Virus genome (UHGV): UHGV-0423091
Direction: 5' to 3' (one strand)
Length of the DNA: 38,795 nucleotides
Source of the DNA: a virus
Shown here in pieces: positions 429 through 34,940 of the stretch. The translations under genes were made by a program, and so were the position numbers. The notes under the pieces were generated by a model. It was not told the origin of the DNA. It did not search any database and saw only the letters and a list, made by a program, of their open reading frames with translations. Every line of letters starts with the position of its first letter. Positions within the stretch are counted from its first letter, which is position 1.

Positions 429-2938
429 TGCGGAATATCTCCGGAGAATCTCTGACGCTTCTGTGTCAGATTAAGAACAACGGGAGAACCATCATCTTTC
501 AGCAGATAACCAGTACCAAGTTTCACCAGGTACTGACTATCGCCGTAACTTTGCAAACCATACTGACCAGGCGGTGTTTTTATCCCGGAGCCGACAACTT
601 GTTCATTCCAAGCCTGATTAACCTGCTTATCGAATTGCTCTGCAGACATTCCCCACGGCAAAAGGACATTCCCCATTCCGTTATAGTCATGCACGCCACC
701 TGTAGCTACGTTAACAGCCTGTTTCCAGACATCATTGTCAATTTCTCCTGATACCACGCCTTTTTTCGCCATCACACCAGCGTAATAATCCTTTGCGATC
801 TCGTATGCCATTGATGCCCCATGAGCGTCACCAGCAAATGCATCCTTCACCATGTCAGAAAACTCAAGGCGAAGATCAGCATCTTTAGGCATCGGAATAC
901 CTTTCGCATCATCAGTACCTTTACGAGCCGCCGCGCCAGCAAGAATTGTCTGCGCAGCGGTTTCAGGAGACACGGAAACATCCGGATTAAACCAGTTTTT
1001 TTCTGCCAAAATACCACCAGGCTTATCCATCAGTATCCCGGCAACGGCAGCAGATGGAGCGTTGGCACTGATCTGCTGTAGTGCTGACATATACATCTGC
1101 CCACCACCAGTGCTCTGCCTGATGGTATCGAGATATGCTGCCTGTTGGGAAACTGGAGCATCACGAAAGAAAACACCGATCTGATTGGCCTCGTCTTTGG
1201 AAAAGAACGTCAGTGGAGTGCCATATGACTTAGCAAGGTCACTGACCTGAGCGGCACGCAAGGCAACGCTCTGTCCAAAGTTATCCTTATTGCTCATGTC
1301 GATAGGCTTTGCCTGTCCGGAGGCAAGAGAGAACTGCACAGGATCCGACTGCCGCTGCTTTATCACCTGATTTGCAGCCGAAACAACGTTGTCATAAAGA
1401 GCTGCGCGTGCCGCATACCCCTCCCCTGTATCACCAGTATCCGGGCGTAATTGCTCAACATATGCTGTAATGCTGCTTGTCGGCATGTTGCGGAAAGAGC
1501 CTATATACTGTCCGGCGATCTGCGTATTCTTAAACTCGGTATATCGCAGGTTTCCTTCTCTGACTCCATAAGCTGCAATAAAATCATCCTCACCAGGTGG
1601 GTTAGGAAATTCAACGCCACGCATATACGCAGCCGTCGCATCGCGAACCCGGCTGTCGAGCATCGTTTTATATTCAGCCTGCTGCTGCCGACGCAGTTGA
1701 TCCGCCTGTCGCATAAAACTTGCCTGCGCCTCAGGAGATGCCGCATCGAATGCTGCATTACCGGTATAGCGTTTGGTGTTGGTTGGAATTGTTGATAAAC
1801 CAAGTGCTGCACTGACACCAGCAGTTAACTGCTGATCACTGTATGGCTGGCTACCGTTCTCATGATGGATAATGGCTGCACAAAGCGCCTTCAGGGTATC
1901 AGGATTAGATGCATCGAGAGGCTCATCAGCAGAAACGCCAAGTTGTTCGCACACTGCTTTGATATACGACATAGTGTCATTTTTATCAGTAGGCGGTGCC
2001 CAGCGATTAATTATCTCGCTGACGGTATCAATACCCTGCCTCTGATACGACATCAGGTTCCGCCCTAATGCACGAATCCCGTGTTCAGGTGTTTCGAATT
2101 TAGCAAATCGACCATCATCACCGGTCTGGCCTACCCACGGATTAGTTTTGCTGTATTCGAGATTTCCTGGGTTATTGTTGCGTATGCCACGGGCACGCTC
2201 GGAAGAGTCACTATCTGCTACAGCACGGCGAGCTCCAGCAGCAGTATCACTTAACTCGCCATTACTTTGGATGAATGCGGTCGCATTGTTTGCCGACCAC
2301 TGGGACAATGCAGCATCAGCAACCTTCTCTTTAAACTCGATTTTCTTGGCCTGGATTTGCTCGTCACTCCAGCCATGTGCAATGCCGTAATCCTCAATTT
2401 GCTGGAAAGTTTGCTTATTAGCCAATACGTATGCGGCGTTGTCGCCATACAATGCTGCGGCATTTTTACCATTGTTCAGCAGCGTAGCCTGAAACTGGCC
2501 TTCTTCGTAGGCATTTATTTGCCCTATCTCGTGCCGCCCGGCCTGCGTAGTGAACTGAATGCGCTGCTGCTGCGCCTGCTGCATGAAAGCATTACGGGCC
2601 TGTTCATCCGGCAGCGACATAGCCAGTTGTTCGACCTGAGCATCAAACTGCTGCGTATACTCATGGCCTTTTCCAATAGCATTTTTCCCTTTCAGGTTAA
2701 GCAATCCTGTTTCAGGATTATTCAGCAGATCACTGCTTATCTGACTGAGGTTAAGAGATGCCTCCTGAGCCAGAGCGATATTGGCACGCTGTTTTGCCTG
2801 CCCCAAAACATCAATTGCCTCTGTCCCTGCCCGAACAAAAGCATCACCAATACCTGGCTGAGAAAACGTCTGCAAGCCTGCTGACTGAACTCCACGACTC
2901 TCAACCTGACGTCCGGATACTGTTGGTACGACTGGCAT
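425..2938 (-). CDS. large internal virion (core/ejection-type) protein, 837 aa
   Basis: Track ORF 425..3013 trimmed to ATG at 2938, which has a GGAGG Shine-Dalgarno 5 nt upstream and overlaps the upstream stop (TAATG); contains a conserved NNPGNL...WxGQ...FxxF segment I recognise only as recurring in phage virion proteins. Confidence 0.6.
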   Translation of the reverse strand: MPVVPTVSGRQVESRGVQSAGLQTFSQPGIGDAFVRAGTEAIDVLGQAKQRANIALAQEASLNLSQISSDLLNNPETGLLNLKGKNAIGKGHEYTQQFDAQVEQLAMSLPDEQARNAFMQQAQQQRIQFTTQAGRHEIGQINAYEEGQFQATLLNNGKNAAALYGDNAAYVLANKQTFQQIEDYGIAHGWSDEQIQAKKIEFKEKVADAALSQWSANNATAFIQSNGELSDTAAGARRAVADSDSSERARGIRNNNPGNLEYSKTNPWVGQTGDDGRFAKFETPEHGIRALGRNLMSYQRQGIDTVSEIINRWAPPTDKNDTMSYIKAVCEQLGVSADEPLDASNPDTLKALCAAIIHHENGSQPYSDQQLTAGVSAALGLSTIPTNTKRYTGNAAFDAASPEAQASFMRQADQLRRQQQAEYKTMLDSRVRDATAAYMRGVEFPNPPGEDDFIAAYGVREGNLRYTEFKNTQIAGQYIGSFRNMPTSSITAYVEQLRPDTGDTGEGYAARAALYDNVVSAANQVIKQRQSDPVQFSLASGQAKPIDMSNKDNFGQSVALRAAQVSDLAKSYGTPLTFFSKDEANQIGVFFRDAPVSQQAAYLDTIRQSTGGGQMYMSALQQISANAPSAAVAGILMDKPGGILAEKNWFNPDVSVSPETAAQTILAGAAARKGTDDAKGIPMPKDADLRLEFSDMVKDAFAGDAHGASMAYEIAKDYYAGVMAKKGVVSGEIDNDVWKQAVNVATGGVHDYNGMGNVLLPWGMSAEQFDKQVNQAWNEQVVGSGIKTPPGQYGLQSYGDSQYLVKLGTGYLLKDDGSPVVLNLTQKRQRFSGDIPQ

Positions 2939-3483
2939 TATAATCCTCCGGGTAATCTGGTTCCTGCTGCTGCCCCGATTGGCGCAGGGGTGCTTTGAGT
3001 AAACGGACTCCACGTCCCACCAAACATCTGGTACGCACCGTATGCCTTCAGAGGCGCAGTGAGCAATGTTGTTGCTGCTCCCACATTCCCCTGTTTACGG
3101 GCTGAACTGGCTTCTGCTTTATAGTTGGCAGCCTGAACCTGATAACCGTAAGCCTCGCGTTGCGCGTTATTCACCGTCGTCAGAGAATCAAGAGCGCCAA
3201 ACTGGGCAGTGTCGCCAAATATATCCAGCGCGTTACCTGTAGATAAATCAGCGCCGGTAGCCCCCATTGTCGCCGCCTGTGTACCAAGCCGCTGTCGGGT
3301 CTCTCTGCGACGTTGCTCAGCTTCAGCGTTACCTCTGTTTATTGCATCATTTGCCTGAGTAGTGGCTATATCTGCGTTAGCTTCTGCAACCTTCGAGGCA
3401 TACTTTCCCTGTTGGTACTGGGTGTATGCCTGAATGCCACTCATGGCGAGCATTGCACCACCAGCAATAACCGGATCGCACAT
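2938..3483 (-). CDS. internal virion protein, 181 aa, N-terminal hydrophobic segment, Ala/Gln-rich
   Basis: Track ORF; GGAG SD 8 nt upstream of ATG 3483; start overlaps upstream stop; composition typical of small ejection/internal proteins. Confidence 0.5.
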   Translation of the reverse strand: MCDPVIAGGAMLAMSGIQAYTQYQQGKYASKVAEANADIATTQANDAINRGNAEAEQRRRETRQRLGTQAATMGATGADLSTGNALDIFGDTAQFGALDSLTTVNNAQREAYGYQVQAANYKAEASSARKQGNVGAATTLLTAPLKAYGAYQMFGGTWSPFTQSTPAPIGAAAGTRLPGGL

Positions 3484-3947: not shown

Positions 3948-6418
3948 CAGAATCCCCCAACAGTAAGGCGAGGAATAACGGCAAGAACAGACAGCGGCAA
4001 CGGATCAAGCTGACGGATTTTTACACGCCCGTTTTTGCCCCAGTTACTGTCCAGTTTCACTTCTACTTTTCCGGTAGCATCATCAACAGGATCATCGTAG
4101 AACTCGAATTCACGCTGTGGATATTCGTACCATTTACCGCCGGGCGTAGTCGCCCAGATGCCGCGACTGGCATTCACAACCAGAGTAACGGAGGGGATCA
4201 CCTGTTTTTTGTCCAGCAGCGTTTCCTGTCCGTTAATGTTGATATCCAGTGTTTCGAATTCAGCAGTTATTGGCAGGCCGATGTGCACTACAGCCCCCGG
4301 AGATTCCAGCGTGACGGCACCTCCGGAAACCACTTTCTGTGGTTCCACGTTCGCATCAGAGAGAATGTTTACGGTCTGGCCTTCAAGATGAGACAGGCCT
4401 CCAAATGTCCGGCGCGCCATCTGCCAGTTCGTGGTGGCCACATTCCTGAGGGATGGCGGGACGTTCCTGTTAGCACGAACCACTACAGCGGTATTACTGG
4501 TTACAGAAATAATGTCGCAACGTAATTCTTTTGACACCTCATCGCCAGTATCAGGATCAGTTCCGGTATAAGGGAACTGTAGTTGCGCGCCGACATCACT
4601 ACTGGTGAAGTACGCACCACCAGAAACACTGATTGTATATTCCGCGCGGTAATCCCATTCGCCAGAACCACCAGTGATGATCATCGTTCTGTCAGACGTA
4701 TTTCTTCCATCATAGCTAAGGCCAGAATCAACAAAGAAAGCATCTTCATCGCTGGTAAATAAACGGCTGGACAGTCGCTCGATGTATCTCACTGTTTGCC
4801 CGTTAACGGTTCGGTTAACGACGAAATACACCGCATCTTCATTGCCTTCGCTGATACTGCATGTGCTTTCATATTTTCCGGTACTGGATTGTGGTGCCCA
4901 TGCAAAAACCTGCTGATCACGCAAATAGGTCATCACCAGTAATTTACCGTCATCACGGATGCAGAAGGCGCTGGAGTAAGGGACTATTGAGAAGCACCAG
5001 TCAACAATGCTGTGCTTCTGAAAAAGATGATTGGCAAGGATAGTAAGGTCGTTCCCCTGATAGCCGTCAACATCGAATGAGTAGGCGAGATCACGGACAA
5101 CACTGCCTTTCTCCTGGACGAACAGAGCAATATTCGCCACGGCAATTGGTGGGACATTGCTCGAGCCATTTGATCCCTGAGAGCTGAATGCAAATGATGA
5201 TGGGGTAAGCACTTTGTTCTGGTCGCCAGTGATGACGTACTCACCTCCGGAAGTCAGCGCCACCAGCGAACCAACATCAATCAGGTGACGGATCTCATTA
5301 ACCTGACGCCCGGCATAGGTGTAGATAATTCTGTCGTCATCCTGCGTAGGATTGCTTTTGCCAAAATCCTTATAATCCCCAGTACGGCTGGCCCAGATAG
5401 TCTGAGGGAACGCAGTCGATGCGGCGAAGTAAAGACGTTGTTGATAATAAACAACAGTGCCAGGATAACCATTAACACTGTTCCAGGCATATTTAGCCCA
5501 TTTATAGCTGGCATTATCCTCGCCAACGACCTGCGAAGGGATATAGGAAATCACCTCGGCAGTTGCAGTAGTGCCGTTTACAGCAGTGATACGGGCAATG
5601 CCAAAACCACTGTGCAGATACTCCCACTCAATGCCAGTATCATCATCACCGGATCCGCCCCAGCCATCCCATGATGTGCCTTCTGTATGCGAAGGGCGCA
5701 AAGTGCCTGTTTTGCCTGCTGTAACGGCGCGATAGTAGTTACTGTCTGCACGGCGAATATCGCCAATCGACGTACTCTTACTGGTTTCCCATACCGGCAC
5801 TGAATCCACTGCAGGCTGTTCCAGATAGAACAATTTGCCTACCTGCTCCGCGCCAAAAATAGAGGCGCTTGCCGTTAACGTAATTGTCCCGGTGCTGGCG
5901 CTGGCATAAACCGTCACTGACTCGTCAATATTGATATCTTCAAATGGCCCGTTCTTCGTTACCACATCAACCAGTTGCCAGTTGTCATGCGCATAGCGGC
6001 GCAACTCTTTCGGCGGGTATGCCGGGTGAACCAGCGTAAGCACGTCGGCGCTTTGCGTAAATTTAATTCGGAACAGATCGGCTTCAGTATATGGCGTGGC
6101 AATTTCATAAATAACATTGCTGCTGTTCAGCACCAACGCACCATCTTTGATAACGCGCATGTACTGGTGCCCGAACTCCAGAGCATAGGTCTGAACCGTC
6201 GAGAACTGGAACGGGATCAGGCGGCATTTCCGATTTGGGTATTTGGCGGCACCGACAAAACGCGTACCAGGTCGATTCTCAACGCCGCCATACTGCCGCA
6301 CGATAAAGTTATCGCACTTGCGCAATGCCACCTGGTACTTCGCCATGTCGATACGACCGTACAACGACGGTCCAATCTCACCACCGGCAAAGCTGGGCTG
6401 GATCCAACTGATAGCCAT
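3947..6418 (-). CDS. large tail structural protein (tail hub/tube-type), 823 aa
   Basis: Track ORF; size and position directly after the adaptor-like gene in the morphogenesis operon; no enzymatic motif seen. Confidence 0.6.
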   Translation of the reverse strand: MAISWIQPSFAGGEIGPSLYGRIDMAKYQVALRKCDNFIVRQYGGVENRPGTRFVGAAKYPNRKCRLIPFQFSTVQTYALEFGHQYMRVIKDGALVLNSSNVIYEIATPYTEADLFRIKFTQSADVLTLVHPAYPPKELRRYAHDNWQLVDVVTKNGPFEDINIDESVTVYASASTGTITLTASASIFGAEQVGKLFYLEQPAVDSVPVWETSKSTSIGDIRRADSNYYRAVTAGKTGTLRPSHTEGTSWDGWGGSGDDDTGIEWEYLHSGFGIARITAVNGTTATAEVISYIPSQVVGEDNASYKWAKYAWNSVNGYPGTVVYYQQRLYFAASTAFPQTIWASRTGDYKDFGKSNPTQDDDRIIYTYAGRQVNEIRHLIDVGSLVALTSGGEYVITGDQNKVLTPSSFAFSSQGSNGSSNVPPIAVANIALFVQEKGSVVRDLAYSFDVDGYQGNDLTILANHLFQKHSIVDWCFSIVPYSSAFCIRDDGKLLVMTYLRDQQVFAWAPQSSTGKYESTCSISEGNEDAVYFVVNRTVNGQTVRYIERLSSRLFTSDEDAFFVDSGLSYDGRNTSDRTMIITGGSGEWDYRAEYTISVSGGAYFTSSDVGAQLQFPYTGTDPDTGDEVSKELRCDIISVTSNTAVVVRANRNVPPSLRNVATTNWQMARRTFGGLSHLEGQTVNILSDANVEPQKVVSGGAVTLESPGAVVHIGLPITAEFETLDININGQETLLDKKQVIPSVTLVVNASRGIWATTPGGKWYEYPQREFEFYDDPVDDATGKVEVKLDSNWGKNGRVKIRQLDPLPLSVLAVIPRLTVGGF

Positions 6419-12214: not shown

Positions 12215-12229
12215 TTACCTTTCAGGTAA
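12215..12229. promoter_or_regulatory. operator-like palindrome TTACC-tttca-GGTAA next to a TTGACA box (12193-12198)
   Basis: Perfect copy of the dispersed 15-bp palindrome, in the intergenic region between the 68-aa gene and the tRNA. Confidence 0.45.
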
Positions 12230-12715: not shown

Positions 12716-12791
12716 AGCAGGACGCCATTGCGATGACTTCATGCTGTAAACCCGTGCAGCCACGGAAGGCATAACTCATTGCTTCCAGTTC

Positions 12792-12815
12792 GCCCGGTTC
12801 GCCGGGCATTTTTTT
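12792..12815 (+). terminator. second intrinsic terminator (GCCCGG-UUCG-CCGGGC plus T7)
   Basis: 6-bp GC stem with UUCG tetraloop followed by seven T. Confidence 0.55.
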
Positions 12816-12831
12816 GCTTGATGACCGCAAA

Positions 12832-12849
12832 TTACCTTAAAGGTATAAT
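12832..12849. promoter_or_regulatory. operator-like site TTACC-ttaaa-GGTAt overlapping a perfect TATAAT (12844-12849) just upstream of the moron gene
   Basis: One-mismatch copy of the dispersed palindrome; consensus -10 hexamer. Confidence 0.4.
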
Positions 12850-12850
12850 C

Positions 12851-13669
12851 ATGAAAAACTTCAAGGTAATTAGCATGTTTGAATCGTTCAAAGAGCTGTT
12901 TTTATCTACTGCCAATACTGCCGTGAATCGAGCCAAAAACCCTGTGCTTGGTGCTTTTGTTATGTCCTGGTGCGCCTTCAACTGGAAATCAATTCTTTAT
13001 CTATTTTTTAGCAAATCAAACATAATAGATAAAATTTCATATATCTCAGATAACAGCACATGGAAAACTGTTATGTTTTATCCATGCTTATCTGTAATTG
13101 CTATCTGCTGCCTATTACCATGGGTAAACAATATCATTAACGTATGGCAAGCAAAGCCTCTTGATAATAATGACTCAATCGAAAATCACCTGAAGGCAAG
13201 AAAAATCCAGCGTGAAACAAGACTGCAGAGGTTATTGGCTAAAAAAGATGTTACATACGACAAAGTTAAGACTGGCGCGGAAAAAGACATCCAAGAGATG
13301 AAAGAAGAGATTATTCGATCAAAGAATAGTATGGGGGAATTGACTGCCGAGTTGAAAGCTAAAGATGACGAATTGAGATCCGCCAGTGCTCAGTTAGCAG
13401 CTCTAAATCATTCATTAAAAGAGATATCGGAAACTCTTGGAAGAATGAATGAGGCATATAAGACCCTCCAAAATGATTTCGACGAATACAAACTCAAATA
13501 CCCTGAAAAATCTCAAATAAAAAGCCTTGAACTTGGCAACGGCCAAACAATTAGCAACTTTTTGGAGCAACACAACTTATCCGGATTAAAATCTGGTAAG
13601 CCAAACGTTTTTAATAACTTTGGTGTTCTATCTGGATTATCAGGTTTCGAGGATAAAAATAAAGACTAA
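12851..13669 (+). CDS. moron: membrane plus coiled-coil protein, 272 aa; candidate superinfection-exclusion or abortive-infection factor
   Basis: Track ORF trimmed to ATG 12851; two predicted transmembrane segments then a long charged helical region; AT-rich; antisense to and converging on the terminase gene. Confidence 0.65.
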   Translation: MKNFKVISMFESFKELFLSTANTAVNRAKNPVLGAFVMSWCAFNWKSILYLFFSKSNIIDKISYISDNSTWKTVMFYPCLSVIAICCLLPWVNNIINVWQAKPLDNNDSIENHLKARKIQRETRLQRLLAKKDVTYDKVKTGAEKDIQEMKEEIIRSKNSMGELTAELKAKDDELRSASAQLAALNHSLKEISETLGRMNEAYKTLQNDFDEYKLKYPEKSQIKSLELGNGQTISNFLEQHNLSGLKSGKPNVFNNFGVLSGLSGFEDKNKD

Positions 13670-20799: not shown

Positions 20800-21030
20800 T
20801 CATGAGTAGAAGAAGTATGCCAGTTCTGCTTTTGAGCGCAGCCATTGTCTTGTTTTACAGGCTTTAAAAAGCCCATTCATCAATACTTTACCTGGCATTT
20901 TGCGCTTACCTGTTAAGTGAGTCTGGATATAGTGACTCGTCGTTCCGGCTTCCTGTGCGAAGGCTTCACGCTCATCCGGAGTAAGTGCAAGCCAGTGCTT
21001 TTTGAAATCGAAATGTCCGTTATCGCTCAT
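20800..21030 (-). CDS. Cro-like HTH regulator, 76 aa
   Basis: Divergent from the repressor gene across an operator-rich intergenic region; HTH-like segment FAQEAGTTSHYIQTHLTGKR. Confidence 0.5.
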   Translation of the reverse strand: MSDNGHFDFKKHWLALTPDEREAFAQEAGTTSHYIQTHLTGKRKMPGKVLMNGLFKACKTRQWLRSKAELAYFFYS

Positions 21031-21184: not shown

Positions 21185-21769
21185 ATGAAAAGTATCCAGG
21201 ACGTCCGCAGGCAAAATCTCAACGACTTGATCGACCGTGAATTCAATGGTGTTCAGACGCGGATGGCAGAAAAACTTGGAACTCAGGCAAATCTGGTAAA
21301 CCGCTGGGCTCTTGGCAAGAAGGTTATCGGCGACCAGGTTGCACGAAAAATTGAAGCTGCCGCCAATAAACCCCGTAACTGGCTTGATATTGATCGCTCG
21401 CTTTCTCAGGAGGGTTTTCAGCCTGTCGGCCCGAGCGATATAGGTCAGCTGGCGGCTCACAACCTGGAACGCTGGATGAGCGAAAGCCGCGACCTTTCAA
21501 CGCAGGGAAAACTACACCGCGCATCCGGCGTCGCCCAGGTGACAATCAGCCGCCTGTTAAACAATGAGGTCAGCGTTTCCATTTCCACCCTGGAGAATGT
21601 TGCATCCGCATTCGGGCGTCACGGCTATGAATTACTGATTCACCCGCACGACCCTGCGACCATCAACTATGATCGCTCGCGCTACGCATTGTTACCCGAA
21701 ACCGAGAAAGCAAAGATCGAAAGTTACATTGAATTTGTCATCAACCAGAACGAAAAAAACAAACAATAA
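21185..21769 (+). CDS. phage repressor (CI role), 194 aa, two HTH-like segments, no S24 peptidase domain
   Basis: Divergent from the Cro-like gene; HTH-like segments near residues 25-45 and 110-135; no Ala-Gly/Ser-Lys autocleavage module; no SD (leaderless-like start). Confidence 0.65.
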   Translation: MKSIQDVRRQNLNDLIDREFNGVQTRMAEKLGTQANLVNRWALGKKVIGDQVARKIEAAANKPRNWLDIDRSLSQEGFQPVGPSDIGQLAAHNLERWMSESRDLSTQGKLHRASGVAQVTISRLLNNEVSVSISTLENVASAFGRHGYELLIHPHDPATINYDRSRYALLPETEKAKIESYIEFVINQNEKNKQ

Positions 21770-28996: not shown

Positions 28997-29159
28997 TTTT
29001 TTTGTACATATCGAACCTCTTCACTTACAGATCACCACACACAACAAACCATATATGTTTAACTATCAGATATTCTGAAATAACTATCAATTCATTGGTT
29101 TTTGATGACAATATTCATAAACAACCATAAATGTAAGGCGGTTTATTAGTTGCCAAAAT

Positions 29160-31766
29160 TTATTTCCTGCAAACTCCAGATGATGTTAATCCATCAAAAA
29201 TAACCTGCACTCTGGCAATAACAACATCAACTCCAGAAGTCGTTTCACTTGCATAACCAAGTTTTATTTTAGATACAATATCCTGAGTAAGTTCAGATAT
29301 TTCAGTTTCTGCAATGTTACCAGAGGCCATGTGATTATCGTATGCCATAGAATGAATTCCATTATTGACATCGATTGAACTAGTATGTTTGTGAAAAATA
29401 GATGGGTTTACCTGAAACGAATTTGAACCGATAAGATCAGAAGATACTCCATTCATCACTGCAGTACAGCGTGGAATATTATTATCGGTTATTGTCATAT
29501 GCAGACGGTTACCAGTTAACCCCTCACCAAGTGTGACATAATACGCCAATTCTCCACCTGCATATTGTTTCCCCTCAACAATAACAGTAATCCCTCTTAA
29601 TTTCTGATTAGCTAGCAAAAACTTATTACTGTCTATATAGCATTTATTTGCGGAACCAAAAACAGCCCCTTCTAAAATATCTGATGAATAGGAATAAATA
29701 AGGTCACCTGAAACAAAGGAAAGAATATCAGATACGTTTCCTTTTGTAGATAAGTTAGGAGAATAGCTATTAACTATTTCATATTGTCCTGTGATAAAAT
29801 CAAGGTAAACGCCATCAGTTTTCATCTCTTTAAAGAAAATGCTATTAAAGCATCCATCAAGAACCGGTGGATATATTCTAGAGCTTGCATAAGCTGTTGG
29901 GTGATTCTTATTATTACCACTACCAGGCGAATAAACATCTTCGTTAGTCATTGACTTTTTAAGCTTAACAGGAATCATCGGCTGCATATCAATTTTGCAG
30001 TTCCCTGAACCACCGATGCGAGGATAAAATAAACCACCAAACCTTACAATATTACTACTGAATAGTATTTCGTTATCGTTAAGTGTTATCTCAACGAAGT
30101 TTCCAATAAGTTTAAATTCAACTGAAAACAAACCAAGTGGAGCAGATAATTTAACAATATTGCGCATAAAAACACCTACAGTCCCTGTTGATGCAGTATA
30201 GTGTGTGGTTTCAAAGGCAGAGCCTGTATATTTCAAGTTAATGAAATTATTATGGTATGAAGACAATTGAAATTGAATCCCAGAACTAAGGATTTCAATA
30301 TCTACAAATTGAATCCTTACGGAGTAAGCATATGATAAATCTTCATATTCATAAGGCAATGTAACATCTTTTGAAATAGTTGCCCTCACATAATTACCAG
30401 AAACCACATCAATCCCATCACGTACAGCATTAAAGTAACGATTAAAATCAATAAGCCCAGCGCCAACATACTGCGCATATGACCGAGTCCATCCTGCCAT
30501 TGCGTTTCGTCCATTCTGAGCTTCTAAACTGCTAAATTCAGAGTCACTTGTGGTACTTGATGGGAGGATATTTGTACAAAAAACAATTTCAGGCATTGAA
30601 GTAATATCATTCAGTTCAGCCATCAATTTAAAAAAAGTTTTCTGCGGGAAGTTACCAACATCCCAACCATCTCCGTCATTCATGCCAAAAGCAATAATAA
30701 CAACATCAGGGTTAATATCACGAATGTAATCAATCCAGCGTCTGTTCGTGTCTGAATACCATGGGTACTGTGAGTTATAAGAAGTAATTGCTGGTGTATC
30801 TTTTCCAAGGTCATAGTACCTCATTCCACCAATTGCTCTGTTAAATAAAGTAGAACTTGGGAATTTCTCTTGCAAAACTCTCTTAAGATGAGCGGCAAAA
30901 ATGCTTGATCGATCCACTGTGCTTATATTATATGGGGCACTTAAGCTGTCACCAACTAACACTATTTTTGAGTTAGGCCTTGATAATCTCTCAAGTGTTT
31001 TAGATGTGACTAAACTGCATGAATTAATGAACTGAGCACTATTTAGTGTCTGTTCAAGTGTATCACCAAATCTGGTACCAACGTATGATGATCCGTTGAC
31101 ACTTGCTAGCTTAAGGCATAAATCAGCAGTATCTGTAATTGAAAAAATAGGAACAGGACGTCCTAAACTGTCATACCCCTGAATTGAGTTTGCCCTAGAA
31201 GATGCTGATGCCATTTCGCTTACTATCTCAGGGAAGCGGAGTGTTTTAGATATGTTGCTGTTAATAACTCCTTTGATAGATGAGTCTGTATATTTCTTCG
31301 TGGAAGCGTCCTGAGGAAATAATGGATCATCAAGGTTACGAATACGATTGCCTAGTGCATCGTAGTAAGTGGCACTAAATGATGGTTTACGAAGAGCCAG
31401 CCGAGCCATGCTTTTGACTAACTGGATCAGCATCGTTAGCTTATCAAAAGCATCCTCATGCACTTCCGCAAAGAACTTACCCTGATTGCGCAGATCAGTT
31501 TCCTGTGTAACCGGTAGCTCTCGTGATATAGAAATCTTATAGCCATTGGCCAACGCCTTCGACAATATTACATTTCCACCATTGTATCCTCCGGCCCCGG
31601 TAACTATATAATCAGTATCAAGAGTCAGTACGGTGATATTTTCATGAATATCAACAACCTGCACAATCAAATCAGATTTATTGAAAACCCTAAAGGCATA
31701 CGGAAACGATGTCGTAACGCCGTTACCGGTGTATTCGTTGTGGTCAACTTCGGTTGAGACCGTCAT
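29160..31766 (-). CDS. tailspike / tail fibre with T7 gp17-like N-terminal anchor and central SGNH (GDSL) esterase-like domain, 868 aa
   Basis: N-terminus YTGNGVTTSFPYAFRVF...LIVQVV resembles the T7 tail-fibre anchor; GDSL block (IVLVGDSLS, residues ~268-276, DNA ~30939-30965) and GxND block (AFGMNDG, ~358-364); AT-rich C-terminal half; GGAG SD. Confidence 0.8.
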   Translation of the reverse strand: MTVSTEVDHNEYTGNGVTTSFPYAFRVFNKSDLIVQVVDIHENITVLTLDTDYIVTGAGGYNGGNVILSKALANGYKISISRELPVTQETDLRNQGKFFAEVHEDAFDKLTMLIQLVKSMARLALRKPSFSATYYDALGNRIRNLDDPLFPQDASTKKYTDSSIKGVINSNISKTLRFPEIVSEMASASSRANSIQGYDSLGRPVPIFSITDTADLCLKLASVNGSSYVGTRFGDTLEQTLNSAQFINSCSLVTSKTLERLSRPNSKIVLVGDSLSAPYNISTVDRSSIFAAHLKRVLQEKFPSSTLFNRAIGGMRYYDLGKDTPAITSYNSQYPWYSDTNRRWIDYIRDINPDVVIIAFGMNDGDGWDVGNFPQKTFFKLMAELNDITSMPEIVFCTNILPSSTTSDSEFSSLEAQNGRNAMAGWTRSYAQYVGAGLIDFNRYFNAVRDGIDVVSGNYVRATISKDVTLPYEYEDLSYAYSVRIQFVDIEILSSGIQFQLSSYHNNFINLKYTGSAFETTHYTASTGTVGVFMRNIVKLSAPLGLFSVEFKLIGNFVEITLNDNEILFSSNIVRFGGLFYPRIGGSGNCKIDMQPMIPVKLKKSMTNEDVYSPGSGNNKNHPTAYASSRIYPPVLDGCFNSIFFKEMKTDGVYLDFITGQYEIVNSYSPNLSTKGNVSDILSFVSGDLIYSYSSDILEGAVFGSANKCYIDSNKFLLANQKLRGITVIVEGKQYAGGELAYYVTLGEGLTGNRLHMTITDNNIPRCTAVMNGVSSDLIGSNSFQVNPSIFHKHTSSIDVNNGIHSMAYDNHMASGNIAETEISELTQDIVSKIKLGYASETTSGVDVVIARVQVIFDGLTSSGVCRK

Positions 31767-31870
31767 GTTAAATCTCCAGATAGTCGCAGCACCCGTTGCG
31801 CCGCATATCTGGTTATTCTATTACCTGAAAAACCATATATGTATAGAAAGACTATAAATACCAATAGATA

Positions 31871-31885
31871 TTACCTTTATGGTAA
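31871..31885. promoter_or_regulatory. operator-like palindrome TTACC-tttat-GGTAA
   Basis: Perfect copy in the divergent control region between the tailspike and antirepressor operons. Confidence 0.45.
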
Positions 31886-31924: not shown

Positions 31925-31940
31925 CTGTATAAATATACAG
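31925..31940. promoter_or_regulatory. LexA (SOS) box CTGTATAAATATACAG
   Basis: Perfect CTGT-N8-ACAG with AT-rich spacer, flanked TA...TT, 22 bp upstream of ATG 31962. Confidence 0.7.
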
Positions 31941-31961
31941 TTATTGCATGGAGAAGATAAG

Positions 31962-32219
31962 ATGCAGCGGTATCACTATCCACTGGAAGACGGATTTACC
32001 GAAAGGATTCACACGCCGGGAGGCGTCAGGTCACTGGTGGAGGGATCGCACTTGATGAAATTACTCCGGGATCTCGATAAGGATGGATTTAATGTCGATG
32101 GCCCACTTGCCGAACTGACTGCACTGATTAACTACGTCACCAGCTCACAGATGTCTATGCAGGATCTGCAAACACATCTCGACTATTGTGCCGAACAATT
32201 ACGAAAACAAACCAGATAA
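31962..32219 (+). CDS. small protein, 85 aa, paralogous to the C-terminal domain of the downstream antirepressor; candidate small antirepressor
   Basis: Track ORF trimmed to ATG 31962 (GGAGAAG SD); by-eye alignment to antirepressor residues ~150-225 (IHxPxGV...E.S.LM.LL..L..DG..V.G..AEL...DxQTH). Confidence 0.55.
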   Translation: MQRYHYPLEDGFTERIHTPGGVRSLVEGSHLMKLLRDLDKDGFNVDGPLAELTALINYVTSSQMSMQDLQTHLDYCAEQLRKQTR

Positions 32220-33219: not shown

Positions 33220-33291
33220 CGGGCGGCGGCACAGGGATGTGCCTTTAAATAATTCTGTACAGATTGCAGACTGGGGGTGAATAGCGTACTA

Positions 33292-33306
33292 TTACCTTAA
33301 AGGTAA
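33292..33306. promoter_or_regulatory. operator-like palindrome TTACC-ttaaa-GGTAA upstream of the accessory module
   Basis: Perfect copy 43 bp upstream of ATG 33349. Confidence 0.45.
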
Positions 33307-33348
33307 ACCTGTTTTTATTTTATACCTGTAACTTACCGGAGATTAAAG

Positions 33349-33675
33349 ATGACAAAACTTGGATTCGTGATGAGAGGTCCGGTAAGAAGCGGAACTCATG
33401 CAAAGCGTAGCAAGAGTCGTATTTTTACTGGTAAGGTTGTAGCACGTAAATCAGCTATTGGCTCGTTCAATAGTGAAAATGCGGCATTGCGCCATATTTT
33501 TATCAGCACAAAGCCAAGAGCATCCGCTGATGTGCATACAATGACTATTCCTATCACAAAGAATATAAAGCGGATAAAAAAGCTCTCATCTGCAGAATCA
33601 AAAGAGATATCTTTCCGCCAGCTTAACTCATTAGAAACGCATATGAAGGAAGAGGAATTCGATGTTTTTGAGTGA
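33349..33675 (+). CDS. highly basic small protein, 108 aa (accessory module gene 1)
   Basis: GGAG SD 7 nt upstream; Lys/Arg-rich; AT-rich codon usage; overlaps the next gene by 14 bp. Confidence 0.5.
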   Translation: MTKLGFVMRGPVRSGTHAKRSKSRIFTGKVVARKSAIGSFNSENAALRHIFISTKPRASADVHTMTIPITKNIKRIKKLSSAESKEISFRQLNSLETHMKEEEFDVFE

Positions 33676-34174
33676 GTATAGCGGGAAGGTTATACCTACT
33701 GGTGAGTTTAAAACTGATGACTTTCTGATTTCGCTAAAAGATGCTTTTAAACAACACTGGCGTCATGGTCATCATCCTGATCTGGGAAAAGATACTCTTT
33801 TTGAAAGACCAGACGAAGTATTAGGTTTCCATCTCAGAAAGGTTCATGTCAATATTGGTGAATATGCATCATATTCATACTCATGTACTGAACAGTGTTG
33901 GGATGAGTGGTCATATGGATTGATTGATGAACAAGGAAATTACAGGCCAAAACCAACCAGTAACGCATATCTCATATATGCAGTCAATGAAATAAGAGAT
34001 GCAGCCTTACTAGCTTATTGGGACCCGCCCGCACACACCAAAGCTAACGCAAAAGTTTGGATGGATTCCGTATTGAATTTCACAAAATTATTTCATGAAC
34101 GAACGAATACAGCTCCACTTAGTAGAAATGTTTATCCGTGGGATTATTCGTACAAATCCAAAAAGCCTGCATAG
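33662..34174 (+). CDS. hypothetical protein, 170 aa, His/Trp/Tyr-rich (accessory module gene 2); loose by-eye resemblance to YafO-type toxins
   Basis: GAGG SD; translationally coupled to gene 1; resemblance is from memory and low-confidence. Confidence 0.5.
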   Translation: MFLSEYSGKVIPTGEFKTDDFLISLKDAFKQHWRHGHHPDLGKDTLFERPDEVLGFHLRKVHVNIGEYASYSYSCTEQCWDEWSYGLIDEQGNYRPKPTSNAYLIYAVNEIRDAALLAYWDPPAHTKANAKVWMDSVLNFTKLFHERTNTAPLSRNVYPWDYSYKSKKPA

Positions 34175-34255
34175 TAGTTTTTTATGGACGAAACAAAAGT
34201 CAGTGCTACACTCATTGACGCCACATTGAGGTGGCTTATAGATGGAAATTTCACA

Positions 34256-34417
34256 ATGAAAAAAGCATTTGCTGCACTGTTCGTTTTGTTGTCTCTGGTA
34301 GCTTCAACTCAGGCCTTTGCCGGTCGTTGTCAGCACGACAGCGATACTGCCGCTGACGGCTCCCGCTGCGGTGGGCGTTCTGCGGATTCCCGCCCGGGCG
34401 GCGGTGGCATTCGTTAA
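34256..34417 (+). CDS. small secreted peptide precursor, 53 aa (signal peptide plus 31-aa mature peptide with two Cys)
   Basis: Internal ATG of track ORF 34184..34417; MKKAFAALFVLLSLVASTQAFA signal with AxA-like cleavage site; followed by a terminator hairpin. Confidence 0.4.
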   Translation: MKKAFAALFVLLSLVASTQAFAGRCQHDSDTAADGSRCGGRSADSRPGGGGIR

Positions 34418-34440: not shown

Positions 34441-34448
34441 GTGACATG

Positions 34449-34745
34449 TCACGTTCCTTTTCTGAATGATAGCCGTTCGAAAAATGATGACATTCCACCG
34501 CAGACAATAGCAAAGATGATCCCACCAAAGAAGAGAAGGCCAGCCTGCCACCACTCCCACCGCCATACATCCACAGCACCAACCATACCAACAATCGCTC
34601 CAACAAACGGAATATAACTCACGATGAAAGCAATGGTGGCTGCAATTATCCAGTGCAATCCCCACCATGATTCAAGCCCAGCCATAATTGCTGCCAACTG
34701 AAAAAGGCCAACGACGATATAAACAATGAATCCTATCGCTTGCAT
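34449..34745 (-). CDS. small integral membrane protein, 98 aa, last gene of the late operon
   Basis: Three hydrophobic segments rich in Gly/Ala/Ile/Trp. Confidence 0.55.
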   Translation of the reverse strand: MQAIGFIVYIVVGLFQLAAIMAGLESWWGLHWIIAATIAFIVSYIPFVGAIVGMVGAVDVWRWEWWQAGLLFFGGIIFAIVCGGMSSFFERLSFRKGT

Positions 34746-34940
34746 GTAGTCACCTATTTACCCAGTAAAAATCAGAGGCCTCCCCTCAATAAGGCTTGCA
34801 ACAAGAACTATTCCCTGCACAACAAAGATGAACCAGCAAATAGCTTGAGTCTGAGGGTTAAGAAAATATTTGTAGCGGTCAATAAATAACAACCCACCAG
34901 AAATTATCACACTCAAAATAATTAAAAACACAACACTTCC

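Follow-up and report, generated by a model that had tools for sequence, protein, structure and literature searches.

The locus and its exchangeable cassette

We analysed a stretch of viral DNA of 38,795 nucleotides (UHGV virus genome UHGV-0423091; the whole stretch is called the window below) and in it a locus of three small genes, g1, g2 and g3, which an earlier note made from the sequence alone had taken for a single AT-rich accessory module with its own operator and terminator. The window is an epsilon15/phiV10-like (Uetakevirus) Escherichia coli prophage. Its flanks match phiv142-3, TL-2011b and phiV10, and the neighbouring 824-residue late protein is 99% identical to its phiV10 counterpart. 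The genes occupy an accessory slot that has the antirepressor gene (ant) on one side and the end of the convergent late operon on the other. They are arranged as follows.

33309-34177, plus strand: exchangeable AT-rich cargo cassette containing g1 and g2 only, delimited by blastn breakpoints and G+C content
33349-33675, plus strand: g1, 108 residues, isoelectric point (pI) 10.6, putative antitoxin
33662-34174, plus strand: g2, 170 residues, divergent YafO-family toxin with a RelE/HigB (BECR) fold
34256-34417, plus strand: g3, 53-residue precursor, a separate accessory gene

The three open reading frames (ORFs) lie where the earlier note had placed them, and all are real genes. Compared with the Salmonella and Serratia homologues, g2 shows a proportion of non-synonymous differences (pN) of 0.13-0.19 against a synonymous proportion (pS) of about 0.8, with the synonymous sites saturated, and g1 shows a pN/pS of 0.57-0.70. 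The g1 product is very basic, as had been described, and the g2 product is indeed rich in histidine, tryptophan and tyrosine (8, 6 and 12 residues, respectively), its gene overlapping g1 by 14 nucleotides (ATG...TGA). The AT-richness claimed for the whole module applies to g1 and g2 but not to g3: the G+C content is 39% in the cassette and 58% in g3, compared with 48% in the whole window. Searches of Rfam and NCBIfam returned nothing relevant, and a literature search on the three RefSeq protein accessions found no mention of them.

In blastn comparisons with TL-2011b and phiv142-3, homology ends at 33307/8 and restarts at 34178, right after the g2 stop codon. Hence, the palindrome that precedes g1, as well as g3 and the terminator behind it, belong to flanks that are common to phages with other cargo. 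The slot itself is filled differently from phage to phage. TL-2011b carries a different YafO-family pair there and phiv142-3 has two small ORFs. In Klebsiella phages the slot contains a DUF2335 protein or an unrelated pair, and in phiV10 it is essentially empty. Of 5426 complete E. coli genomes, 69 contain the whole segment 33200-34480 at about 99.8% identity and 468 others match it in part only; the cassette is thus carried by about 13% (69/537) of the complete E. coli genomes having the prophage region. The clade closest to g2 was found in no deposited phage genome. It was found only in Uetakevirus-like contexts, in the same neighbourhood, and a locus search with the narrow alignment returned one species-representative genome only.

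The surroundings of the slot vary as well. In the Serratia and Salmonella relatives (loci L006, L007, L013 and L014) a gene of the Rap1a family (type VI secretion immunity) lies directly downstream of g2 on the opposite strand (at about 4554-4943, minus strand), another accessory cargo at the same junction. TL-2011b (L001) carries a 257-bp inverted repeat on both sides of the cargo slot and g3 (2091-3109, 4173-4429). One arm is formed by the 3'-terminal part of the Bro-N antirepressor gene, and the other by the same terminus as borne by a second ant gene, of the P22 type, in the opposite strand. Several loci from IMG/VR (L019, L025, L026, L030, L035) have an ant homologue downstream of g3 in reversed orientation. 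The repeat and the reversed gene suggest inversion or recombination via that repeat.

The g1-g2 pair

The 170-residue g2 product had been thought, by eye, to resemble YafO-type toxins loosely. This likeness was borne out by a sub-threshold match to the full Pfam model, by profile comparison, by the predicted fold and by the name given to it in RefSeq. The match to PF13957 (YafO_toxin) has an E-value of 9.5e-4 and spans model positions 7-100 of 101. An exhaustive HMMER search for g2 relatives yielded only 58 cluster representatives; PF13957 is matched by 27 of the 42 family members scanned at E <= 0.01, the best at 6.8e-23. Compared by hhalign with YafO of E. coli K-12, the 42-sequence g2 profile gave a probability of 96% (E 4.7e-9) over 112 columns, covering residues 11-128 of the 132 of YafO, and the family-invariant residues F29, G42, D44, H62, Y106 and H125 of g2 pair with identical YafO residues. 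The predicted structure has a RelE-like alpha/beta fold (RelE/HigB-like). A protein identical to g2, WP_000479990.1, is already named a YafO-family toxin by the Prokaryotic Genome Annotation Pipeline. Sequence searches of the Protein Data Bank (PDB) with the g1 and g2 profiles returned no relatives, and to our knowledge no structure of a YafO-family protein has been solved.

YafN-YafO of E. coli K-12, encoded in the dinB-yafN-yafO-yafP operon, is the closest well-described system and its toxin belongs to the same family and fold class as g2, with the invariant F, G-[KR]-D, H, Y and H residues in common. Both toxins are near-neutral rather than basic (pI 7.0 for YafO, 6.4 for g2), and the antitoxin gene comes first at both loci, the gene order of PF_YafO systems (PMC11980606). 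Unlike YafO with its 132 residues, g2 has 170; the two are about 18% identical, and g2 carries in addition an acidic insert of about 34 residues (64-97) and a C-terminal extension of 22 residues. The K-12 pair also differs in lying in a chromosomal operon, whereas g1 and g2 lie in a prophage cargo slot and overlap by 14 nucleotides. YafO has been shown experimentally to be a translation-dependent mRNA interferase of the RelE superfamily (PMC2814082). Judged by homology and the modelled fold, g2 would be a divergent YafO-family, RelE-fold endoribonuclease that cuts mRNA.

Two further comparisons help to place g2. Phage TL-2011b encodes gp45-gp44, annotated in RefSeq as 'type II toxin-antitoxin system YafO family toxin', in the same slot, with the same operator-bearing flank before it and the same g3 and terminator behind it as in the window. 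Its 181-residue toxin passes the PF13957 gathering cut-off (26.3 bits) and is overlapped by a small upstream gene, but it is only 33% identical to g2, and its 59-residue partner lacks the N-terminus of g1 and resembles it only loosely at the C-terminal end. The ribosome-dependent mRNA interferases HigB2 of Vibrio cholerae (PDB 5mje, 5jaa) and HigB1 of Mycobacterium tuberculosis (7nbu) have 11-14% sequence identity to g2, which has extra elements compared with them. In higBA, unlike in g1-g2, the toxin gene comes first (PMC11980606).

The partner g1 belongs to phrog_5933 and contains no Pfam or NCBIfam domain; all 22 homologues found carry the name 'hypothetical'. Its AlphaFold2 model has a mean predicted local distance difference test (pLDDT) score of 57, with the helix 81-106 alone confident and residues 1-78 low. 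The protein falls into two parts, residues 1-78 (pI 12, net charge +16), which are predicted to be disordered, and residues 79-108 (pI 4.5), an acidic helix and tail ending in EEEFDVFE. Within the close clade the N-terminus is conserved (MTKLGFVMxG...KRRK), the basic middle is hypervariable and the C-terminus, ISFRMLNSLEDRMKEEEFDVFE, is again conserved. The three g2 clades correspond to three partner types that have in common only the C-terminal helix and the acidic tail, which reads FDVFE, FDGPE or YDDAE according to the clade. Since the partners share only this C-terminal part, the pattern is the one expected of a toxin-binding element that co-evolves with its toxin. The tail of YafN (DDDFNDFKE) is likewise acidic and aromatic. 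An end-to-end alignment can be made between the C-terminal 29 residues of g1 and those of YafN, and its score is reached by only 47-53 of 2000 shuffles; this may be taken as a weak hint, from the two sequences, at a neutralising tail common to both. From YafN, which is of the Phd/YefM type, g1 differs in its sequence profile (see below) and in being predicted to be mostly disordered. We conclude that g1 is best read as a new, previously undescribed antitoxin family. The toxin family was already known, the antitoxin family would be new, and the analysis offers a testable function for proteins that are 'hypothetical' in every database searched. The C-terminal helix of roughly 30 residues could also serve as a minimal system for studying the neutralisation of YafO-type toxins.

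The pairing of the two genes was followed in Escherichia, Salmonella, Serratia, one Klebsiella plasmid and IMG/VR contigs. In every locus examined the partner gene lies directly upstream of the g2 homologue and overlaps it, by 14 nucleotides in most and by 5-11 nucleotides in the most distant clade. In the window, the Shine-Dalgarno sequence of g2, GGAAGAGGA, is located inside g1. Type II systems typically consist of small, co-oriented genes that adjoin or overlap and stay together, the antitoxin coming first in those of the YafO type, and g1-g2 conform to this. As the YafO likeness of g2 is upheld, the earlier reading of the locus as toxin-antitoxin-like cargo fits g1-g2, a pair kept across genera; it does not extend to g3.

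The plasmid homologue deserves a separate remark. Locus L055 (Klebsiella pneumoniae plasmid NZ_CP129740.1, 199297-204809) carries a g1-g2 homologue of 46% identity in a tail fibre / gp19-like / Bro-N context, in a record typed as a 229-kb plasmid. Because the gene context is the same, this plasmid carries a Uetakevirus-like prophage segment.

A putative phage repressor operator and possible roles of the cassette

The DNA just upstream of the cassette contains a promoter-like site and a palindrome, the latter recurring throughout the window.

33264-33292, plus strand: predicted promoter-like pair, -35 TTGCAG (33264-33269), 17-nucleotide spacer, -10 TACTAT (33287-33292)
33292-33306, no strand assigned: operator TTACCTTAAAGGTAA, a perfect 7+1+7 palindrome that overlaps the last base of the -10 hexamer
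12215, 12832, 15734, 15752, 18722, 18784, 20730 and 21067: copies 1-8 of TTACC-N5-GGTAA
21115, 21827, 21889, 26911, 28846, 31871, 32251 and 33292: copies 9-16 of TTACC-N5-GGTAA

The perfect palindrome had been noticed before and is present, but it is not an operator of the module's own: its motif is repeated at 16 places in the window and is that of the epsilon15-type repressor site. By chance 0.8 copies would be expected, and none of 100 shuffled sequences reached 16. All but one of the copies (15/16) lie in gaps between ORFs, often in pairs. Two are found between the cro-like gene (20800-21030) and the CI-like repressor gene (21185-21769), two more just downstream of the repressor gene, and others before the genes for the small terminase subunit, the resolvase and the gp19-like protein and before ant. 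It would seem that a single repressor controls the majority of the phage's transcription units. Strong TTGACA promoters adjoin the copies at 12215 and 21889. The site at 33292-33306 fits 10 of 10 core positions of TTACC-N5-GGTAA and 11 of 12 of ATTACC-N5-GGTAAT. In the RefSeq record of epsilon15 (NC_004775.2) seven ATTACC-N5-GGTAAT sites are annotated as 'protein_bind: repressor, lysogeny', and the repressors of the two phages are 42% identical. The motif is the same in both, with conserved arms and a free spacer, and so is its distribution, the epsilon15 sites being scattered before the terminase, resolvase, immunity and tail-fibre/gp19 regions. Unlike the window, epsilon15 has no cargo cassette at this position, and in the records examined we saw no operator copy annotated before a toxin-antitoxin pair.

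Upstream of g1 in most divergent loci inspected, the operator arms are conserved and the 5-nucleotide spacer is variable; in a few loci the site is degenerate. A TTGCA(T/G/A)-17/18 nucleotides-TAnnAT pair precedes it in most related loci inspected, the operator either abutting the -10 hexamer or sitting about 11 nucleotides downstream of it. We also considered the palindrome as an RNA terminator hairpin and rejected this, as its folding energy (-6 kcal/mol, z -0.4) is no better than that of shuffled sequences and its arms rather than its spacer are conserved. From this, together with the recurring layout of promoter and operator, we infer a promoter of g1-g2 that is gated by the phage repressor.

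A LexA box is not present at the cassette promoter, the sole perfect one (CTGTATAAATATACAG, 31925-31940) being located 1.4 kb upstream, just before the gp19-like ORF 31944-32219 and near the repressor operator at 31871-31885. This ORF belongs to phrog_450 and is similar to the C-termini of antirepressors. Kim and Ryu reportedly described in 2013 an SOS-controlled small antirepressor in the epsilon15-like phage SPC32H; the LexA box and the gp19-like ORF presumably represent its equivalent.

On balance, we consider it probable that g1-g2 is a two-gene type II toxin-antitoxin cassette in the accessory slot of a Uetakevirus and is controlled by the phage repressor. By homology and fold, g2 would cut mRNA, probably while it is being translated, and so arrest protein synthesis. 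The antitoxin g1 would be made first from the same transcript, with translation of g2 probably coupled to it through the 14-nucleotide overlap, and g2 is probably bound and blocked by the acidic helix and tail at the C-terminus of g1 (about 81-108); no DNA-binding fold can be recognised in the long N-terminal part of g1, which is basic and predicted to be disordered. The cassette would be driven by a weak promoter, the -10 hexamer of which abuts the operator, so that it should be off or strongly damped in the lysogen and become active upon infection or induction, in cells lacking a functional repressor. A parallel exists in K-12, where the dinB operon with yafNO is SOS-regulated, its repressor being LexA (PMC3105422). 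Both YafO-type loci would then be freed once a repressor is lost, and by analogy g1-g2 may stand behind a repressor removed on induction much as yafNO stands behind LexA.

More tentatively, the pair may have handed its transcriptional control over to the prophage master repressor, with an antitoxin that has no DNA-binding domain of its own and represents a new, largely disordered class with a YafN-like acidic C-terminal plug. Toxin and antidote would then be made only in the absence of the repressor, and the pair may serve a lytic-phase or commitment function. It might, for example, penalise the destruction of an infecting phage, or an abort of induction, by the cell, as opposed to protecting the lysogen. 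The candidate roles of the cassette are a lytic-phase or commitment function on the one hand and a leaky defence or addiction module on the other. If the repressor control is true, the cassette would clearly illustrate the coupling of a toxin-antitoxin system to the decision between lysis and lysogeny, an unusual arrangement that would bear on the purpose of phage-borne toxin-antitoxin systems. For annotation, it helps that the accessory block of Uetakevirus prophages can be read as successive transcription units, each with a single cassette and gated by the repressor.

Several observations weigh against a repressor-controlled toxin-antitoxin pair. With respect to the toxin, the Pfam score of g2 (19.7 bits) lies below the gathering cut-off of 25 bits, a Foldseek search gave no significant match in the PDB or BFVD, and the ribosome dependence of YafO itself has been questioned by newer data (PMC8546651). 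With respect to the antitoxin, no recognisable antitoxin domain was detected in g1, folded DNA-binding domains (ribbon-helix-helix, helix-turn-helix, AbrB, Phd/YefM) having been looked for by Pfam, NCBIfam, AlphaFold2 and PDB sequence search. Its comparison with the YafN profile by hhalign gave a probability of 0.3%, i.e. no similarity, BLASTP of its C-terminus against YafN found nothing, and the C-terminal likeness described above is weak (uncorrected p of about 0.025). With respect to the control, the binding of the repressor to the motif is known as a database annotation only (RefSeq feature table), and the -35 hexamer TTGCAG agrees with the consensus at 3 of 6 positions only, the site lying below the threshold of the consensus promoter scan. 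Finally, addiction and abortive infection, the roles usually ascribed to toxin-antitoxin systems, fit poorly with silence in the lysogen.

The alternative that survives best, although we hold it to be rather improbable, is that g1-g2 is expressed leakily or independently of the repressor and protects the lysogen as a defence or addiction module, aborting other phages or penalising prophage loss. The changing content of the slot, as seen in TL-2011b, phiv142-3 and the Klebsiella phage with DUF2335, and the low G+C content, which marks the cassette as acquired cargo, are both in keeping with this. Related 170-residue YafO-family toxins are moreover found on small Acinetobacter plasmids beside other toxin-antitoxin genes, and toxins of the RelE superfamily serve in phage defence (PMC11980606). 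However, the operator abutting the -10 hexamer predicts repression in the lysogen, and the confinement of the close g2 clade, as far as found, to Uetakevirus-like contexts suggests a phage function particular to the lineage rather than a defence island that moves about. A scan of PADLOC-DB v2 with g1, g2, g3 and the TL-2011b pair returned no family at E <= 1; no defence model was matched.

That g1, g2 and g3 form one system, for instance a toxin and an immunity protein together with an effector or signal that is exported, is very unlikely. All three are co-oriented between one promoter-like site and one terminator, and they occur together in E. coli loci even where the antirepressor gene is elsewhere (L019, L025, L026, L030). 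Yet g3 is found without g1-g2 (L002, L052, L053) and follows unrelated cargo in phiv142-3 and in two Klebsiella phages, and many g1-g2 loci lack g3, among them those of Serratia and Salmonella and several from IMG/VR. In addition, g3 lies outside the homology breakpoints and has a base composition unlike that of the cassette. The ORFs downstream of g2 in Salmonella and Serratia were examined as possible g3 analogues and are not. Its distribution across genomes makes g3 independent of g1-g2 and largely refutes a three-gene system; nothing ties g3 to the pair as a secreted effector.

The least probable alternative, that the palindrome is an autoregulatory operator bound by g1 or by a g1-g2 complex as in classical type II systems, could appeal to the strongly basic N-terminal part of g1 with its conserved start and to the fact that the operator stands directly before cargo only where cargo exists, none following ant in the empty phiV10 slot, but it was dropped in view of the 16 phage-wide copies (which include the immunity region and sites upstream of the terminase, resolvase and ant genes), the annotation as repressor site in epsilon15, whose annotated genes include no g1-g2-like pair, the occurrence of the motif before different cargo in phiv142-3 and the lack of a predicted folded DNA-binding domain in g1.

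The g3 peptide, the hairpins and neighbouring features

The g3 product (phrog_14503) starts with MKK-AFAALFVLLSLVA-STQAFA, with predicted cleavage before G leaving a mature peptide of 31 residues with two cysteines. By inspection a basic n-region, a hydrophobic h-region and an A-x-A motif can be recognised, in agreement with the signal peptide of the earlier note, and the predicted signal peptide is of the Sec type without a lipobox. These features are conserved in the homologues from Klebsiella phages, which start at the same ATG and in which the mature part, both cysteines included, is almost invariant. In the window, g3 is probably on the same transcript as g1-g2.

Two hairpins border the locus.

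33228-33243, plus strand: hairpin GGCACA-GGGA-TGTGCC followed by TTTAAATAATT, 9 nucleotides after the antirepressor stop codon
34423-34440, no strand assigned: strong GC-rich hairpin AGGCCGC-GAAA-GCGGCCT, common to phages with other cargo

The first of these has an equivalent at the same position in four related loci (L012, L015, L018, L040) and probably serves to terminate transcription of the ant unit, which lies upstream of the module. The second is the hairpin that had been regarded as the terminator of the module. It is present behind g3, but its T-run is on the minus strand; on the plus strand an A-tract precedes it and no immediate T-run follows, and in phiV10 the corresponding hairpin carries a terminator annotation on the strand to which the convergent late operon belongs. 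As its sequence is shared by phages with other cargo, it is not peculiar to the module, though it probably stops the plus-strand transcript as well.

Right after this hairpin there is a perfect 12-bp palindrome, GTGACATGTCAC, at 34441-34452, which overlaps the 3' end of a minus-strand gene for a 98-residue membrane protein. This gene (34449-34745) and a second one encoding 57 residues (34758-34931), both small, very hydrophobic minus-strand ORFs, end the late operon. The 98-residue protein belongs to phrog_3075, gives weak holin/LrgA-like matches in Pfam and has been conserved among related phages of Escherichia and Klebsiella.

Apart from the cassette, the window contains two further AT-rich stretches (33-39% G+C), 29001-31800 and 13001-13500. 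The former corresponds to an 868-residue tailspike annotated as an SGNH/GDSL hydrolase and the latter falls within 12779-13669, a plus-strand ORF from the mechanical listing; mosaic acquisition is the probable origin of both.

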